64,000 nt of DNA, taken from assembly GCA_030697645.1 (NCBI GenBank), contig JAUYPI010000018.1:10457-74456 (forward strand), in the 5' to 3' direction. Made by a program: the position numbers and the translations under genes. Below are positions 6,047 to 61,925 of this stretch, piece by piece. Under the pieces are notes generated by a model. It had not been told where the DNA came from. It saw only the letters and a list, made by a program, of their open reading frames with translations, and made no database searches. The stretch is from a bacterium. Lineage in GTDB: Bacteria; Patescibacteriota; Minisyncoccia; Phycocordibacterales; VMGT01. Numbering within the stretch: the stretch's first letter is position 1; every line of letters begins with the position of its first letter.

Positions 6047-6929
6047 GGAAAGGCGGCGGAGCCGCACCGCTCAAAACCGCAAAAGAACCTGGAGAAAAAC
6101 ATCGGCTCGCCTGCCCGCCTCTGGAGGGAACCATATTTTAATTTTGGGGGAAGAAAATTTTTTAATCCTATGAATAAGAAGGTTACTTTTTTTATAGGTT
6201 TATTAGGATATATATTCGCGGGAATAATAGCGCGATTAGTTTTTAGTAAATCTTCTTTTTATCCAGGGTTAGGATTACAGACTGCCGACTACTCAATTGC
6301 CAATTTAGCTTTTCTATCAATTATTCCCGCGATAATTTTTGTATTGTTTTTTTTCATTTTTCATTATCTATTTAAAGATAGAGAAAATATTATTTTAAAG
6401 TCAAGCGGTTTTATTTTAGTATTTTCTTCTATCTCAATTTATATATGGCGTACACTTTTAGTTTTTGGAATAGGTAGTAATGATCTTCCTATCGATCCAA
6501 TAATAGGATTATTGGGATTTGTTGGAACGCTTACGACATTTATTTATCTCTCCTATCATTCTCTCCGTCTTTATAAAAGTAGCAGCCGTTTATGGGTAGC
6601 CGAACTGATTGCATCAATAGTTGTTTTAGTATCAGGGACTATTTTTAGTGCTTCTGAGTTGTCATATGTAGGTCTAGTCTTACTACCTGCGAGCCTCGTA
6701 TTTTTCCTATTTTCTTTTTTCACCCTACTTATTAAATCATGGAGAGAAACACATAAGTCATCATTTTTCTTCTCTATTCTTGGTCTACTCGTCATAATTT
6801 TCTCAACAGGGCTAGTTTTTGTCATTAAAGTACTTTCCGAATGTTGCCACTGATTATTAACAACTTTTAAGATGGGTCGCCGCCAAAGAAAAATTGGAAA
6901 TTGTTATCGGTGCGGCTCCGCCGCCTTTC
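6047..6929. mobile_element. AT-rich inserted segment bounded by perfect 23-bp inverted repeats (GGAAAGGCGGCGGAGCCGCACCG / CGGTGCGGCTCCGCCGCCTTTCC), 24 bp downstream of tRNA-Ile
   Basis: The inverted repeats were read directly at 6047-6069 and 6907-6929. The enclosed DNA is ~30% GC against ~60% flanking. Confidence 0.6.
6170..6853 (+). CDS. hypothetical multi-pass membrane protein (AT-rich, probably foreign)
   Basis: Six or more hydrophobic segments and Ile/Phe/Leu/Lys-rich composition. It lies inside the inverted-repeat-bounded segment. Confidence 0.55.
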   Translation: MNKKVTFFIGLLGYIFAGIIARLVFSKSSFYPGLGLQTADYSIANLAFLSIIPAIIFVLFFFIFHYLFKDRENIILKSSGFILVFSSISIYIWRTLLVFGIGSNDLPIDPIIGLLGFVGTLTTFIYLSYHSLRLYKSSSRLWVAELIASIVVLVSGTIFSASELSYVGLVLLPASLVFFLFSFFTLLIKSWRETHKSSFFFSILGLLVIIFSTGLVFVIKVLSECCH

Positions 6930-7016
6930 CGAATTTTCGCGGGGGGATTTCTTCGCCGCCGCAGGCGGCGAAATGCGTTCGGACTAATTTAAGTAAGAAT
7001 GCTGCATGACGTTGTT

Positions 7017-7598
7017 ATGCTTGCTACGATTTTAAAATCGAAAAAACGCTGTTCGTGGGTTGGAAATGATCTGCCGATGCAGCAATATCACGATGAGGAA
7101 TGGGGCGTGCCTACCTACGATGACCTGAGGGCATTTGAATTTCTTGTACTTGAAAGTGCCCAGGCAGGATTAAGTTGGCGCACAGTTCTCCACAAAAGAG
7201 AAAACTATCGAAAAGCATTTGCAAACTTTGATCCACAAAGAGTTTCTCGTTTTTCGAGTCGTGATGTTGCGCGATTGTTAAAAAACTCTGGCATTATTAG
7301 AAACAATGCAAAAATTAATGCAGCCATTAATAATGCACATCGGTTTGTTGAAGTACAGGAAGAGTTCGACTCCTTTACGGCATATTCATGGGGGTTTGTT
7401 CATAACGAACCAATAAGACACTCTATTCGAGGAATAGCTGATTATCCAACGATAAGCGCTGAATCAGTTGCGTTTGCTGCCGATCTGAAAAATCGCGGAT
7501 TCAAATTTCTCGGCCCGACGATCATGTATGCTCACATGCAAGCCGTCGGCATGGTGAATGATCACATGATAGGATGTTTTCGTCGCACACGCGTATAA
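7017..7598 (+). CDS. tag: DNA-3-methyladenine glycosylase I
   Basis: CSWVGNDLPMQQYHDEEWGVP, LVLESAQAGLSW and C-terminal AHM..CF motifs characteristic of Tag. Confidence 0.85.
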   Translation: MLATILKSKKRCSWVGNDLPMQQYHDEEWGVPTYDDLRAFEFLVLESAQAGLSWRTVLHKRENYRKAFANFDPQRVSRFSSRDVARLLKNSGIIRNNAKINAAINNAHRFVEVQEEFDSFTAYSWGFVHNEPIRHSIRGIADYPTISAESVAFAADLKNRGFKFLGPTIMYAHMQAVGMVNDHMIGCFRRTRV

Positions 7599-32163: not shown

Positions 32164-32199
32164 CCAGCACCACTTTTACGCTTGTAAAAGTGGTGCTGG
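32164..32199 (+). terminator. Perfect 16-bp hairpin between smpB and the tmRNA 5' end
   Basis: CCAGCACCACTTTTAC-GCTTG-GTAAAAGTGGTGCTGG. Its 3' arm runs directly into the GGGGATG acceptor of ssrA. Confidence 0.5.
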
Positions 32200-32609
32200 G
32201 GATGATTGGTCTTGACAAAAGAATACGCCCGTGAGGTGCGCAGGAGTGCTCCGACATCACTTAAAAAGGCCGGAACCAATACGTGCCAAGAACACTCTTG
32301 CACGAGCAAAGTCTATTCTTTCTCCCTATTTTGGGGTAAGCGACTTTGCTCTCGCATACGCCTAAAGCCGCGTCAGCGGTTTTCACGTCTGCGACGCTTG
32401 TTCTCTTTGACGCCCGATAAGACCGAACGAGTGTAATAAAAATTCGGACTGGAGCGCCGCGTGTCCCGCGCAGCGCTCAAGATTCTAGGGACGGCACGCT
32501 CGGTGAGATTTTGCTTGTTTCTCACTCGCCAGTGTATAAAAACAAGCTACCCTGCGTAGATGCCTCAGAGCAATTCTTTTGCACCCGGGTTCGACTCCCG
32601 GCATCTCCA
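32198..32609 (+). ncRNA. ssrA: tmRNA (transfer-messenger RNA)
   Basis: 5' GGGGATGATTGGTCTTGAC (tRNA-like domain acceptor and D-analogue), 3' GGGTTCGACTCCCGGCATCTCCA (T-arm and acceptor), with a G3.U70 wobble as in tRNA-Ala. It follows smpB. A candidate tag reading frame is GCAAAG...GCCTAA at 32306-32365. CCA is not encoded. Confidence 0.85.
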
Positions 32610-32712
32610 CTCGACTCGCCCCTCCTCGCGGAGGGGCGCGCTCGTAACGCTCGTAAAAAAACGAGGCGTTAAAAACAGCATACGTAAGTTACCCTGTCTT
32701 TTTGATGAACTT
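32605..32712 (+). repeat. Direct repeat copy 1 (about 107 bp): the last few nt of ssrA plus the downstream terminator region
   Basis: CTCCACTCGACTCGCCCCTCCTCGCGGAGGGGCGCGCTCGTAACGCTCGTAAAAAAACGAGGCGTTAAAAACAGCATACGTAAGTTACCCTGTCTTTTTGATGAACTT is duplicated with one SNP at 34183-34289. Confidence 0.85.
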
Positions 32713-53336: not shown

Positions 53337-53708
53337 CTACATAGTAGCCCTATATGCCTTTATCCTATCCTTATCTTCGTTTTCCGATTCACCCTTGAAA
53401 TAAATCTCAATAAACTCGACCTTCAGTGTTTGGACATGGAAAGCGTAGATGATCCTGATCCCACTTTTCACTCCACGTCCCTTCAATGCCTTACAAGCAA
53501 ATTTTTTGAGTTTGCAAATTAGAACCTCGTCAGTACAGAATTGCGGCATCGGGAAGATTGCCTGCTTATTGATCTTTTGGGTGTGGTAAAGCTCAGTGGC
53601 GAACGCCTTGGCAACCTCAATATCTTCGTTGAGGGAGTGAAATTTCTTGAGAAGTCTCTTGAGATCACGCTCAAATTCTTCCGTGGAGCTATAAGTCAGT
53701 TTCGTCAT
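53337..53708 (-). CDS. RelE/ParE-fold toxin (ParE_toxin-like)
   Basis: C-terminal LKGRGVKSGIRIIYAFHVQTLKVEFIEIYFKG resembles the ParE/RelE core (Y-R-I-I-Y ... hydrophobic ... K). It overlaps the upstream HTH-antitoxin gene by 20 nt. ~35% GC. Confidence 0.55.
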   Translation of the reverse strand: MTKLTYSSTEEFERDLKRLLKKFHSLNEDIEVAKAFATELYHTQKINKQAIFPMPQFCTDEVLICKLKKFACKALKGRGVKSGIRIIYAFHVQTLKVEFIEIYFKGESENEDKDRIKAYRATM

Positions 53709-54468
53709 AGATCCGTACGGAAGTTTCCGGAGTTCGATAAAAGACAGATTCGTATTTTATGATTTGCCCCTCTTCGGTCCCAAGCCAGGGCACATCTTTA
53801 TGAGAGTAGTCGCTCAATTCAGTCGCGGTTTTATCGGAAAGTCGAGAAAGCACTTCGTCTATATGTTTGATTTCTTGGGCATTTAGGACGGAAATATCAG
53901 CATCTCTTCGCGGAAGATACTTGGTTTGCTCGTGTTGAAAATACTTGCTCTTGACCGTCTCTAGTTCGCCTTTCTTCTCCATTGACTCAACGATCTTCTT
54001 AAACTCAACTGGAGTCGGTCCGAAATGATTCCGTGTGTATGTTGCTCCAATGAGCTGTTCTTCAAACTTTTCGTAAAAATCAAAGTCAATAAAGTAGAGT
54101 AGCTTATACAGCACCGTCATACCGACATTTGGTTTACTGCCGACTTTCTTAAGTATATAAAGCAAAACCTCCTTGAACTTTTTAACATGACGTTGGGGCA
54201 CATCAATACGCATCTCCTGTTTCGGGGAGCTGTGGGCTTTTTCACTTAAAGAAACTTTGACGTCCGGAGCTACCTTGCCTGCAATCAGATCTGAAAATGA
54301 AATATTAAAAATTTGGGCGATCTTGTTCGCCTGGGAGAGAGTGAGTTCTTTTGCCCCCTTCTCAATTTCTATATAACTCGCACGAGAAACACCGATTTTA
54401 TCAGCCACAAAAGCCTGCGAAAGCCCCTGCTTATTACGCAGTTCTAGTAGAAAATAGTGCTTAATCAT
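53689..54468 (-). CDS. XRE-family HTH fused to a Panacea (DUF4065, SocA-like) antitoxin domain
   Basis: N-terminal HTH (LRNKQGLSQAFVADKIGVSRASYIEIEKG). The C-terminal VLYKLLYFIDFDFYEKFEEQLIGATYTRNHFGPTPVEF matches the DUF4065/Panacea pattern. Confidence 0.65.
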   Translation of the reverse strand: MIKHYFLLELRNKQGLSQAFVADKIGVSRASYIEIEKGAKELTLSQANKIAQIFNISFSDLIAGKVAPDVKVSLSEKAHSSPKQEMRIDVPQRHVKKFKEVLLYILKKVGSKPNVGMTVLYKLLYFIDFDFYEKFEEQLIGATYTRNHFGPTPVEFKKIVESMEKKGELETVKSKYFQHEQTKYLPRRDADISVLNAQEIKHIDEVLSRLSDKTATELSDYSHKDVPWLGTEEGQIIKYESVFYRTPETSVRIYDETDL

Positions 54469-54650
54469 GGTTTGAGTATAGCAAACGGGAATAAGTTGTC
54501 AAGTATTCCGACAATCTAACTGTTGATAATCTTGACAACGAAAATGCGAGGAGTAAAATAGCAAAAGAGTGGCACTGTTGCGGCAGTAACCACTCGATCA
54601 TTCGGAAAGGCTTTTTAGCCCTTTGGGGCCTTCCGGCCTATCTCTGCACA

Positions 54651-54929
54651 ATGCGATCCAACAATTTCATTCTAACAGACCTAGACTCATTAACAAACAA
54701 GGGTTATAAACTTCTTCACAAAATGCCCTATTACACTCGTAATACTGGCAAACCGTGGAAGGCACAAGACGTTTCCCAACTCAGGCAACTGATTCATCAA
54801 AATGCCCCGACGCGGGTAGCCGGATTCAAACTTGGGAGAACTGATGATGCAGTCAGGGCCGAGGCAAGCAAAATAGGCCTCAGTCTCAAACCGGCAAATC
54901 AGTCCCCGTACACTCGCCGTAAGTCGTAG
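54651..54929 (+). CDS. hypothetical small protein (AT-rich islet)
   Basis: ORF with no recognisable motif. Confidence 0.35.
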   Translation: MRSNNFILTDLDSLTNKGYKLLHKMPYYTRNTGKPWKAQDVSQLRQLIHQNAPTRVAGFKLGRTDDAVRAEASKIGLSLKPANQSPYTRRKS

Positions 54930-55003
54930 GTAATAAAAGAGGAGCAGAGCCGCAACCTGCTCCTCTTTTATTTCCCAGATTTAGTTCGATTATCTTGTTT
55001 GCA

Positions 55004-55468
55004 TTACCGATTTCCTTTTGCCCGGTTGTGTGTTTTGCACAACATCTGGCAATTTTCGACGATAGTTTTACCGCCTTCATGCCAAGGAGTAATGTGATCT
55101 GCTTCCATTTCTGAAATATCGTACTTCTTCTTACAAAATGGGCAAATACCATTTTGCCGCTCGTATGCTTCGCGCTTCATCTTGTCGGTAAAAGCACGGA
55201 TTGAAAGATAGTTCTCTCGTCTTGTCAGAACATACGGATAAATACCGGATTTTTTGGTAACATCCTCGTCTTGCATTAACTCTTTAATTTCGGTTTCCAG
55301 TTTAGCGGCGTTTAGTTTCTTATCTTTGTATTGGTTGTGTAGTTCTCCCCAATTTACATGCGCCATTTCATGTCGATAATTTGGAAAAGTTTTTCGCACC
55401 CACGCAATCACATCTTGGAAGTATTGCCACAACTCATCAGCATTTCTGTCGTGCTGATGTTTGGCCAT
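55004..55468 (-). CDS. HNH-family nuclease domain protein (DUF1524 / McrA-like His-Me finger), probably a remnant of a larger defence gene
   Basis: CPFCKKKYDISEMEADHITPWHEGGKTIVENCQMLCKTHNRAKGN is an HNH motif with Cys-pairs and an H-N-N/H arrangement. Confidence 0.7.
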   Translation of the reverse strand: MAKHQHDRNADELWQYFQDVIAWVRKTFPNYRHEMAHVNWGELHNQYKDKKLNAAKLETEIKELMQDEDVTKKSGIYPYVLTRRENYLSIRAFTDKMKREAYERQNGICPFCKKKYDISEMEADHITPWHEGGKTIVENCQMLCKTHNRAKGNR

Positions 55469-55559
55469 ATAATCTTCTATTTTGCCGTCATTTATCCATG
55501 AAAGCGTGGTTTCTAAGTATTCTTGCCGGATTGGTGAGCCGCTAACTAATTGTCCGCCG

Positions 55560-55916
55560 TCATTCGCTAACAGATACGCCGCACAGTTTGATTTGCTGAA
55601 TTTTAAAGATTTCTTTGTAAGTAATCGCGTTTTGATTACCCATAATTAAGAACTTTTTCTTGTGCTTTACTAGTTGAGCAACATATTCACGGAATAAAGA
55701 AAATGGAGGGTTGGTTATGACTATATCGGATTGCTTGAGTGATTCGATGCATTCGTCGCTCCGAAAGTCACCACTACCACGCAGAGGGGTTGCGGTGTTC
55801 TTGTCGTGTTTGAGCAAATACTTAACGTCATCAAGATTTATCGCTCCATCCTTGTCGATATCCGGCACTTTTGTAATTTCAATTTTGAAAGGTTGTTTGC
55901 CTTTTGATCCAGCCAC
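55560..55916 (-). pseudogene. fragment of an N6-adenine DNA methyltransferase (motif IV only)
   Basis: VITNPPF catalytic motif in a 118-aa ORF with no motif I or target-recognition domain. Different frame from the downstream HNH ORF. GTG start. Confidence 0.5.
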
Positions 55917-60668: not shown

Positions 60669-60845
60669 GGCCCCGTCCATAAATAAGTTCACTCATATCG
60701 TGCTCAATGCGTGCCCTGATGCAGCTTGGCGCGGAATGAGCGAATCCGAAACGTATCGAGATACGAAGAGGATTCGCGACTGAGCACGAGTTGCATAAGG
60801 GTGCGCAGTGAGTGCGAGATGGGGAAGTTATTTATGGACGGGGCC
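60669..60845. mobile_element. MITE-like structured element, copy 2 (same 17-bp terminal inverted repeats, reverse orientation relative to copy 1), 6 nt upstream of tRNA-Arg
   Basis: GGCCCCGTCCATAAATA ... TATTTATGGACGGGGCC. The interior is about 90% identical to the reverse complement of 4270-4413. Confidence 0.75.
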
Positions 60846-60851
60846 TAACCA

Positions 60852-60923
60852 CCCCTCGTAGCTCAATGGACAGAGCCGCGGACTTCTAAGCCGCTGATGG
60901 GGGTTCGATTCCCTCCGAGGGGA
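60852..60923 (+). tRNA. tRNA-Arg (anticodon TCT)
   Basis: Acceptor CCCCTCG/CGAGGGG, D-arm GCTCAATGGACAGAGC, anticodon loop CTTCTAA, T-arm GGGGGTTCGATTCCCTC. No CCA. Confidence 0.8.
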
Positions 60924-60969
60924 TAGAAAGGTTTTGCGAAGAAGGAGCGGCCAAAAAAACTCAGCTGCC

Positions 60970-61046
60970 GGACGATTAGCTCAGTTGGCTAGAGCGCTGC
61001 TTTTACACAGCAGAGGCCGGAGGTTCGAGCCCTCCATCGTCCACCA
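60970..61046 (+). tRNA. tRNA-Val (anticodon TAC), CCA encoded
   Basis: Acceptor GGACGAT/ATCGTCC, anticodon stem-loop CTGCT-TTTACAC-AGCAG, T-arm GGAGGTTCGAGCCCTCC, ACCA. Confidence 0.85.
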
Positions 61047-61198
61047 GAATTTTTAAGTGCGGTTAATTGCTTGCGTGAAAACACGCACACTGTGGTGAGT
61101 TCTGGCCCGCAGCGACGCAATCGCTGCAGGGCTTTTCTTTTTGTGTTTTTCTTGATAGAAATTGGATAGGACGTGCCGCTGTTTTGAAAGTCAAACAC

Positions 61199-61380
61199 GC
61201 ACCCTTAGCTCAGCTGGCTAGAGCGTTCGTTCATCCCGTTAGAAAGCGTGGGCACTTAGCTCAGTTGGTAGAGCGTTCCCTTCACACGGGAGAGGCCACA
61301 GGTTCGAGTCCTGTAGTGCCCATTGCTTTCTAACGGGACGAGCACGCGAGAGGCCGTAGGTTCGAGTCCTACAGGGTGCA
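61199..61380 (+). tRNA. Split tRNA-like gene (182 nt): canonical acceptor, D- and T-arms, but the anticodon region is occupied by a 13-bp helix bearing a complete tRNA. The anticodon cannot be assigned
   Basis: 5' GCACCCT-TA-GCTCAGCTGGCTAGAGC and 3' GTAGGTTCGAGTCCTAC-AGGGTGC-A form a perfect acceptor and T-arm. Between them lie TTCGTTCAT-CCCGTTAGAAAGC-GT-[tRNA-Val]-TT-GCTTTCTAACGGG-ACGAGCACGCGAG. Confidence 0.6.
61250..61322 (+). tRNA. tRNA-Val (anticodon CAC), nested inside the split tRNA-like gene
   Basis: Acceptor GGGCACT/AGTGCCC, D-arm GCTCAGTTGGTAGAGC, anticodon stem-loop TTCCC-TTCACAC-GGGAG, variable AGGCC, T-arm ACAGGTTCGAGTCCTGT, discriminator A. Confidence 0.85.
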
Positions 61381-61413
61381 TCGAAACGCTACACAAGCTG
61401 CGCGAAATACTTC

Positions 61414-61484
61414 GGGCTCATAGTAAAGTGGTATTACGCGGCATTCGCATTGCCGAGTCCCGGGTTCGATTCCCGGTGAGTCCA
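61414..61484 (+). tRNA. tRNA-Ala (anticodon CGC), G3.U70 present
   Basis: Acceptor GGGCTCA/TGAGTCC with a G3.U70 wobble, D-arm GTAAAGTGGTATTAC, anticodon stem-loop CGGCA-TTCGCAT-TGCCG, T-arm CCGGGTTCGATTCCCGG. Confidence 0.8.
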
Positions 61485-61529
61485 TGTCAATCCATTTTAA
61501 TCTACTCGCAGCTACGTTAATCTATAGAT

Positions 61530-61925
61530 ATGACAAGGCGAAACATTTTAGCGGTCATTATCGGATTGATTATTGGGTTTGTTCCTGCTTACACGAGGTT
61601 GCTTTTTTATGTCGGTAAACCGTTCTTAATGTTCTTTAACCCAATAATTAGTAGTTTAATTGCAGAGTGGTTATACTTCTTGATTTTGGGGATTGCGGTA
61701 TTCGTTGCAAGTTTTCCTAAATCGTATTACCTAATTCCTGTTGTTGGATTACCTATTGCAATAGTATCCGCATTGAATAATTATTTGACCCTATCGGTAT
61801 GGACAAGCACAGTATCGGTGTTTCTATCCTTTATGGTTTTCGGAAGTATTGGTTATTTTATAGCAAAACTGATATCTGTAAGTTTTGCCAAACCACCAAC
61901 TCTTGTAAAATCTGGTTCCAATTAA
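61530..61925 (+). CDS. hypothetical membrane protein (AT-rich, directly after the tRNA cluster)
   Basis: Four hydrophobic helices. ~35% GC against ~60% background. Confidence 0.5.
   Translation: MTRRNILAVIIGLIIGFVPAYTRLLFYVGKPFLMFFNPIISSLIAEWLYFLILGIAVFVASFPKSYYLIPVVGLPIAIVSALNNYLTLSVWTSTVSVFLSFMVFGSIGYFIAKLISVSFAKPPTLVKSGSN

Follow-up and report, generated by a model that had tools for sequence, protein, structure and literature searches.

A complete tRNA-Val(CAC) gene (61250-61322) was found nested, at the tip of a hairpin, between the two halves of a second tRNA-Val(CAC) gene (61199-61380) in a stretch of Patescibacteriota DNA (Minisyncoccia; Phycocordibacterales; VMGT01) from assembly GCA_030697645.1 (contig JAUYPI010000018.1, positions 10,457 to 74,456 of the forward strand). 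This whole 64,000-nt stretch is hereafter called the window; all coordinates are window positions, and every part of the nested unit lies on its forward strand. The explanation that we favor, and regard as reasonably probable, is that a tRNA-carrying miniature transposon replaced the resident tRNA gene, leaving the outer halves as a young relic and its own arms as a processing stem for the tRNA that it carries.

The 5' half of the outer gene (61199-61233) comprises the acceptor strand GCACCCT (61199-61205), the D arm GCTC-AGCTGGCTA-GAGC (61208-61224), G26, the anticodon stem strand TTCG (61226-61229) and the loop bases T32, T33, C34 and A35 (TTCA, 61230-61233). The 3' half (61343-61380) resumes with C36, A37 and C38 (CAC, 61343-61345) and continues through the stem strand GCGAG (61346-61350), the variable loop AGGCC, the T arm GTAGG-TTCGAGT-CCTAC (61356-61372), the acceptor strand AGGGTGC (61373-61379) and the discriminator A (61380). 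The outer acceptor and T stems are fully paired (7/7 and 5/5). An earlier note on this sequence had recognized both halves, with the acceptor strand and D arm on one side and the T arm, acceptor strand and discriminator on the other, and the sequence confirms them. The same note held that the anticodon stem-loop was missing and had been replaced, which proved wrong: the insert is flanked by both strands of the stem and by what is left of the loop, TTCA and CAC.

Alignment to an intact orthologue, described below, places the insert (109 nt, 61234-61342) in the outer anticodon loop, between A35 and C36. From left to right, it encompasses a left arm TCCCGTTAGAAAGC (61234-61247), a GT spacer (61248-61249), the inner tRNA gene, a TT spacer (61323-61324), a right arm GCTTTCTAACGGGA (61325-61338) and an extra CGAG (61339-61342), which pairs with 61229-61232 and occupies the place taken in sister elements by the second copy of a flanking repeat. 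Embedded in the arms are the invariant terminal-repeat cores CCCGTTAGA (61235-61243) and TCTAACGGG (61329-61337). The inverted repeat reported in the earlier note is real, with its 5' arm CCCGTTAGAAAGC lying at 61235-61247 instead of 61234-61246, and the perfect helix extends to 14 bp (61234-61247 with 61325-61338) once the T61234-A61338 pair is included. Within the 64-kb window, the 13-mer of the arms is present only as these two arms. Below the helix, one A-C mismatch is followed by four further pairs (GUUC, 61229-61232, with GAGC, 61340-61343). At its tip, the GT spacer is able to pair with the discriminator A61322 and with T61323, T61324 being then bulged, and the T61249-A61322 pair is drawn by ARAGORN as an eighth acceptor pair of the inner tRNA. 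The insert is filled by the tRNA; it holds no open reading frame and leaves no room for a transposase.

Folding predictions are in line with this anatomy. For the 182-nt stretch a folding energy of -91.4 kcal/mol was obtained (z = -6.25), a stability reached by none of 200 shuffled sequences, and the insert alone yields a helix topped by a cloverleaf (z = -6.8). In the predicted fold an almost continuous helix of about 25 bp is formed by the arms, the two spacer pairs and the inner acceptor stem stacked on one another, and the outer acceptor stem stays closed. Across all the fetched loci (designated by L numbers below), leader/trailer arms of at least 11 bp were present around 19 of 831 tRNAs and around none in a swapped-partner control, in which each upstream flank was paired with the downstream flank of another tRNA. 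The nested arrangement is hence more than chance. The closed outer acceptor stem, together with the intact outer D and T arms, would also suit outer halves that are held by the arms and the acceptor stem as a functional two-piece tRNA-like RNA, acting as a decoy, a regulator or a primer. We consider this very improbable, given that the outer halves bear no sign of conservation after the insertion and that homologous shells decay in other lineages.

The inner gene (acceptor GGGCACT/AGTGCCC, discriminator A, CCA not encoded) matched the Rfam tRNA model with 71.1 bits (E = 2e-15, gathering threshold 29) and is called Val(cac) by ARAGORN, so that both programs agree with its earlier description as a complete canonical tRNA-Val(CAC) on the helix tip. 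Over positions 6-64 it shares about 90% identity with Val(CAC) genes of Patescibacteria, and BLAST comparison with phage records returned only generic tRNA similarity. The inner and outer tRNAs are paralogous, as had rightly been stated. Because they differ at four of the seven acceptor pairs while the outer stem retains the ancestral sequence, the cargo tRNA is, as judged by these stems, not a fresh local copy.

Comparison with orthologous clusters, which the earlier note had suggested, identified an intact and uninterrupted Val(CAC) gene at the syntenic site of a relative, L005. This relative, with a PilM protein 63% identical to that of the window, presents PilM-PilN-PilO followed by tRNA-Arg(TCT), Val(TAC), Val(CAC) and Ala(CGC) in the same gene order. 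The joined outer halves of the window gene (61199-61233 plus 61343-61380) agree with the L005 gene at 69 of 74 positions, a single 1-nt gap falling at C31; the first 26 bases match at 26/26 and the 3' half at 36/38, whereas the inner tRNA shares only 56 identical columns with it. Of 67 distinct Val(CAC) genes of Patescibacteria, 64 are closer to the joined outer sequence than to the inner tRNA, and the outer 26-mer starts a tRNA-Val(CAC) in more than 100 Patescibacteria genomes among the matches listed. The L005 match and the closeness to these Patescibacteria genes identify the outer gene as the ancestral Val(CAC) resident at this site, now interrupted between A35 and C36. It is already slightly damaged, since C31 is absent and joining the halves in silico (61233|61343) leaves a 6-nt anticodon loop according to ARAGORN; one added C turns the joined sequence into a canonical Val(CAC). 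Two other PilM relatives, L003 and L004 (PilM 81% identical), are on contigs that stop right after Val(TAC). None of the glycosyltransferase relatives checked for closer synteny was syntenic, and no homologues were found for a neighboring 131-aa protein.

A search for the inverted pair CCCGTTAGA/TCTAACGGG in the fetched DNA, complemented by one scan of viral contigs, identified further elements of 90-120 bp with these ends. Four of them occupy non-tRNA sites in Kaiserbacteria/Saccharibacteria genomes (L022, L040, L056 and L071), and the ends are also carried by viral contigs (L270-L279), as an element in L278 and as short or phage-borne hairpins in L270, the L271 group and the L275 group. Other copies lie inside tRNA genes, in one further genome of the Kaiserbacteria/Saccharibacteria set (L121) and in three metagenome contigs (L153, L155 and L196), and L081 presents a variant arm, CCCTGTTAAAT. 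The non-tRNA copies stand between direct repeats, either ATGAAT ... ATGAAT or ATGGGT ... ATGGGA. The sister elements at L022:4017-4134, L071:5088-5199, L056:1557-1656, L040:3124-3240 and L278:3736-3827 are placed precisely at start codons, so that a ribosome-binding site and ATGAAT precede the element, and a second ATGAAT and the reading frame come after it. For the L022 and L071 insertions, empty sites were identified in L044, L071, L022 and L061, and ATTCAT or ATGAAT occurs once at the empty sites and twice at the filled ones. This doubling of the repeat establishes the L022 and L071 copies as DNA insertions with target duplication, and the family as mobile. The duplication measures 6 bp; counting the outermost T-A pair with the terminal repeat shortens it to 4 bp. 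A reading as an IS200/IS605-type element, with a one-sided target and no duplication, is contradicted by the duplicated ATGAAT where empty sites exist, and a likeness of TCTAAC/GTTAGA to integron attC sites was rejected on the grounds that the order of the motifs relative to the hairpin is reversed with respect to attC. One of the sister elements precedes a gene with a predicted N-terminus resembling ribosomal protein L21, a resemblance unconfirmed by search.

An alignment of 12 end pairs from different genomes showed the 9-bp core to be invariant in all 12 members. The three pairs inside the core are paired in 12/12 members and are made up of three to five pair types each, and one pair outside the core is paired in 11/12 (UA in six, CG in four and AU in one). 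The resulting covariation score (0.335) compares with 0.163 in shuffled alignments, was reached by none of 500 of them, and drops to 0.08-0.13 in slid registers. No Rfam family matches the arms, the whole unit or the sister elements; weak matches to mir-4859 and Plastid-ycf2 fell below threshold and were discarded as tRNA or hairpin look-alikes.

The intact orthologue in L005 and the flanking repeats and empty sites of the sister copies support one of the two readings put forward in the earlier note, in which a small mobile element, bounded by inverted repeats and carrying a tRNA, disrupts a tRNA gene. Family membership of the arms, the empty L005 site and the mobility of sister copies together point to transposition at the window site. 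We propose that a non-autonomous, hairpin-ended element of 109 bp (61234-61342) inserted between A35 and C36 of the resident Val(CAC), bringing as its sole cargo a complete, different Val(CAC) gene that would now supply the function. The outer halves would be a young relic without function of their own, having lost C31 and being unable to form a normal anticodon loop. In the transcript of the cluster, the insert arms and the inner acceptor would form a leader/trailer processing stem like those of rRNA, from which the inner tRNA could be freed by a double-strand or 3' cut within the helix or beside it, followed by RNase P, 3' trimming and CCA addition, with two outer fragments left as by-products. 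The insertion is probably recent, since the arms are perfect and the outer halves present a single lesion.

Similar nests were sought with a scan for two tRNA D-arm motifs 30-60 nt apart in a metagenome collection and in viral contigs; L081 and L121 came from a scan of a genome collection with the outer 5' half. Counts from these collection scans refer to the matches listed and are not frequency estimates. Among those matches we identified at least 20-30 complete tRNA-in-tRNA nests, and 23 viral contigs matched the nest scan. In every readable nest, the inner and outer tRNAs are of the same type. The matched nests include Val-CAC (the window and L081), Val-GAC (L153 and L155), Thr-CGT (L196 and L242), Ala-CGC (L121), Arg-GCG (L133) and Thr-GGT (L144 and L237), together with further Ile, Met and Val-TAC cases. 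Outer halves are decayed in some of them: L196 has a TTTAATT T loop and an acceptor mismatch, and L081 has lost its anticodon. Hairpin inserts pile up in the outer shells, and none was present in any inner tRNA examined. Tandem arrays of tRNA-like 5' fragments, with periods of 68 nt and 51 nt and located directly upstream of a tRNA gene (L177:4745-5090, L219, L187:12-640 and L205), were set aside as a different phenomenon.

A second family of arms, CCTGCCCGCC ... GGCGGGCAGG, encloses the nests of L133 (2092-2298), L144 (7255-7437) and L242 (1495-1674), all of them on the reverse strand. These inserts enter the D arm or position 35/36 without any overlap, and once they are removed in silico, canonical genes for Arg(GCG), Thr(GGT) and Thr(CGT) are recovered. 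One gene of this family with two inserts is likewise restored to a canonical tRNA.

Several observations weigh against a transposon-borne replacement at the window site. The base-exact inserts of the second family are, on sequence criteria, intron-like. The window copy is flanked by TTCA on the left and CGAG on the right, with no recognizable target-site duplication, and this CGAG is complementary to the left flank instead of repeating TTCA. The other tRNA-borne copies are comparable, with TGAA(Y) on one side only and, on the other, a partly complementary 4-6-mer in place of a direct repeat. The interiors of family members are mutually unrelated, which is unusual for a family of miniature transposons, and a single copy is present in the 64-kb window. 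Neither the window nor the fetched loci yielded a transposase with these ends, and a search of those loci for an autonomous element turned up nothing beyond isolated single 8-mers, about as many as expected by chance. A freely transposing cassette should also leave tRNA-carrying elements at non-tRNA sites, and none was observed there. C31 aside, the outer halves remain pristine (acceptor 7/7, perfect T arm), a condition that also fits purifying selection. Lastly, the nested core is covered by one assembly only.

Some of these points are shared by an intron-like interpretation, in which the 109-nt insert would be removed from the RNA by an undescribed bacterial pathway, for example by cleavage at the helix base followed by RtcB-type ligation, so that one gene would yield two Val(CAC) tRNAs. 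Its appeal lies in outer halves that are almost unchanged relative to the L005 orthologue, in a helix kept by covariation across the family, in an insertion point, 35/36, that is also the reported site of self-splicing group I introns in Patescibacteria tRNAs (PMC13011429), and in the exact restoration of canonical tRNAs in L133, L144 and L242, the gene with two inserts included. In the window, however, excision at 61233|61343 restores no canonical tRNA, the joined gene lacking C31 and being left with its 6-nt loop, and six bases outside the 9-bp cores (T61234 and ACGAG, 61338-61342) have no counterpart in the orthologue. An intron-predictor run, of the kind proposed in the earlier note, did not bear out the outer gene, which goes uncalled in ARAGORN intron mode (0-300 nt); lowering the threshold produced only a spurious antisense call. 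A scan of 720 in-silico deletions carried no information either way, ARAGORN accepting nearly any of them since the acceptor, D and T arms are intact.

The geometry of the archaeal bulge-helix-bulge introns, of which the insert had seemed reminiscent, also finds no support. Its motif of two 3-nt bulges around a 4-bp helix is absent at the junctions of the window copy, where the helix begins at the junctions themselves and its irregularities amount to one A-C mismatch and one bulged U; inspection by hand led us to reject it for both the window copy and L144. For the group I core (Rfam RF00028), no match reached the gathering threshold in the window and none was present at E <= 1 in 60700-61600. 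By their flanking repeats and empty sites, the sister elements are insertions at the DNA level, outer halves are decayed in L196, L081 and the Pro(CGG) nests described below, and hairpin inserts gather in outer shells, with none in the inner tRNAs examined. Overall, we judge removal of the window insert from RNA to be quite improbable.

The Pro(CGG) nests bear on a further alternative. A tRNA-Pro(CGG) lies between arms of 9-14 bp in at least 11 Patescibacteria genomes (L027, L073, L113, L013, L041, L106, L036, L075, L089, L070 and L080), in which the sequences of the arms differ and their pairing is kept. These units are usually found within Pro-like outer halves with decayed D arms and further small palindromes or hairpin insertions, and the arrangement looks like an old, conserved nest. 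The window unit could, by analogy, result from local duplication, repair synthesis or gene conversion into a pre-existing hairpin whose arms are kept for maturation, with no transposition at this site. Agreeing with this are the Pro(CGG) arms themselves, three nests (L159, L162 and L169) in which inner and outer sequences are identical or nearly so, and the fact that all the tRNA-carrying elements observed lie at a matching tRNA gene. Its difficulty is twofold: the divergence of the inner acceptor from an ancestral outer stem argues that the inner gene is not a recent local copy, and the arms of the window unit bear the exact 9-bp ends of elements that have demonstrably inserted elsewhere. We therefore regard a purely local origin as unlikely. 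A 20-nt GC-rich palindrome, CCTGCCTGCCGGCAGGCAGG, was also observed repeatedly, both between genes and in the T and D loops of relic tRNA genes (L113:3442-3461, L080:2820-2839, L133:5426-5445, L029:4306-4325, L045:3208-3227 and L232:3972-3991), where it behaves like a small repeated hairpin element.

Assembly support was examined in a second assembly of the same population, GCA_034376905.1, which is base-for-base identical to the window up to 61224 and from 61433, its contigs ending at those points: L283 ends at 61224, exactly the end of the outer D arm, and L001 starts at 61433. The nested core (61225-61432) might on this account be a chimeric join of two Val tRNA genes, the more so as independent assemblies of the same population and of relatives, L003 and L004 included, all break inside this tRNA cluster. 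Nevertheless, the junctions present no long shared repeat, a chimeric join cannot create a 14-bp perfect inverted repeat bearing a motif common to other genomes, and the same architecture is found mid-contig in unrelated samples (L121, L144, L155 and L081). An assembly artefact is hence extremely improbable for the window, and some nests at contig ends, such as that of L159, may be assembly loops.

If a mobile cassette did replace the resident gene, the consistent match between cargo and target calls for an explanation. Candidates are a selection filter, whereby only a matching cargo rescues a hit in a single-copy tRNA gene, and homing or in-situ capture. An RNA-level or homing interpretation stays alive, at a low probability, because the cargo always matches, the flanks are one-sided and the second arm family is exact. 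The broader conjecture that these are tRNA replacement cassettes with a genuine link between cargo and target, being either a selfish element that homes into the gene of its own tRNA or a new kind of bacterial intron, is a minority view to which we give modest weight. Under its homing version, they would constitute a gene-replacement drive for tRNA genes in bacteria of the candidate phyla radiation. Under its intron version, the exact relatives in L133, L144 and L242 could represent introns that are neither group I nor bulge-helix-bulge and that provide two tRNAs per gene.

Among known systems, the closest kinds to the favored mobile element are miniature transposons and mobile insertion cassettes. 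Miniature inverted-repeat transposable elements and mobile insertion cassettes, such as MIC231 of Bacillus cereus, are short, lack a transposase of their own and possess conserved terminal inverted repeats. The window insert resembles them in being short and devoid of a transposase, in sharing its terminal inverted repeats with copies in many genomes and in carrying a passenger gene, as well as in the flanking direct repeats and empty sites of sister copies and in the uninterrupted L005 gene at its own site. It differs from them in having a tRNA gene as its passenger and the gene for that very tRNA as its target, and in being nested in a relic of its own kind; in that the interiors of the family are unrelated and the pairs beside the invariant core co-vary; and in that the window copy lacks a target duplication, with no autonomous partner found in the window or the fetched loci. 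A target duplication and an autonomous partner are defining features of these kinds, and the element is not assigned to any described family.

Other systems share individual features with the nested unit. Archaeal tRNA genes may contain bulge-helix-bulge introns, and split or permuted tRNA genes occur in Nanoarchaeum, Caldivirga and Cyanidioschyzon. The likeness to these lies in a helix-closed insert, with complementary sequences bringing the halves together, in the exactness of some related cases and in the non-canonical positions of related inserts, such as the D arm and the T loop; the differences are the bacterial host, the lack of a bulge-helix-bulge, the presence of a whole tRNA inside and an outer gene that excision does not restore. 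Phages and genomic islands encode integrases that direct them to tRNA genes, and they restore the gene from their attachment site, the duplication being limited to a 3' segment of the tRNA, repeated directly at the far end of the element. The window insert similarly lands in a tRNA gene and brings sequence that keeps the tRNA functional, but it places a complete tRNA within a split gene (5' half, whole tRNA, 3' half) and has no recombinase gene. In rRNA operons, leader and trailer sequences form long stems, and intervening sequences are removed by RNase III. As in those stems, a mature RNA would sit here on the tip of a long flank helix, and the Pro(CGG) arms keep pairing while their sequence varies; in the window unit, by contrast, there is a single tRNA, its flanks are embedded in the halves of another tRNA, and the processing is a prediction.

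Group I introns have been described in the anticodon loops of Patescibacteria tRNAs, position 35/36 included (PMC13011429), in a report that does not mention nested tRNAs or inverted repeats. The host phylum and the unusual 35/36 position are the only link between those introns and the window insert, which at 109 nt has no group I catalytic core by Rfam, contains a tRNA and is bounded by terminal inverted repeats. A full-text literature search returned no description of a bacterial tRNA gene nested in a tRNA gene, nor of a Patescibacteria hairpin element with CCCGTTAGA/TCTAACGGG ends.

Should the favored explanation hold, tiny hairpin-ended elements would be turning over tRNA genes in the reduced genomes of the candidate phyla radiation by carrying a spare copy with them, which would represent a new route to the replacement of an essential single-copy gene and could explain switches of acceptor stems between close relatives. 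It would also account for the breaks of assemblies at tRNA clusters, and for standard tRNA finders reporting the inner gene only and missing the shells. The nests further raise the question of whether bacteria without known tRNA splicing enzymes process or rejoin helix-bounded inserts. The CCCGTTAGA/TCTAACGGG ends, in turn, provide a marker for a family of Patescibacteria mobile elements of which we found no description in the searchable literature.

Further features were noted in and around the tRNA cluster. Between Val(TAC) and the nested unit, a terminator-like hairpin (61104-61150, -22.1 kcal/mol, z = -3.2) is followed by a U-run, and the spacer between the two spans 152 nt in the window versus 27 nt in L005. 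Given this hairpin 3' of Val(TAC), the latter probably belongs to a different transcript from the nested unit and tRNA-Ala. These two may have a promoter of their own; a consensus scan for a promoter of the nested unit and tRNA-Ala found none. Among the five tRNA genes or shells of the cluster, a CCA end is encoded only by Val(TAC) (61044-61046), and is absent from the inner Val(CAC), the outer shell, Arg and Ala.

Elsewhere, the window encodes PilM, PilN, RuvX, glycosyltransferases and a transfer-messenger RNA (tmRNA), and the named homologues of a window glycosyltransferase belong to metagenome-assembled genomes of Patescibacteria, Parcubacteria, Paceibacteria or Kaiserbacteria. This gene content marks the DNA as bacterial, and these homologues, together with the outer 26-mer, point to a probable host in the candidate phyla radiation. 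Two islands (53689-55916 and 6170-7598) have a low GC content of about 42-44%, versus about 55%. No transposase was found in them, and they harbor defense and repair genes instead: one island contains a gene with a helix-turn-helix and a SocA/Panacea antitoxin domain, an HNH endonuclease and a fragment of an EcoRI-type methylase, and the other a 3-methyladenine glycosylase. The tmRNA gene (32198-32612) was matched by Rfam with 90.9 bits, and its predicted tag, AKNTLARAKSILSPYFGVSDFALAYA, is unusually long.

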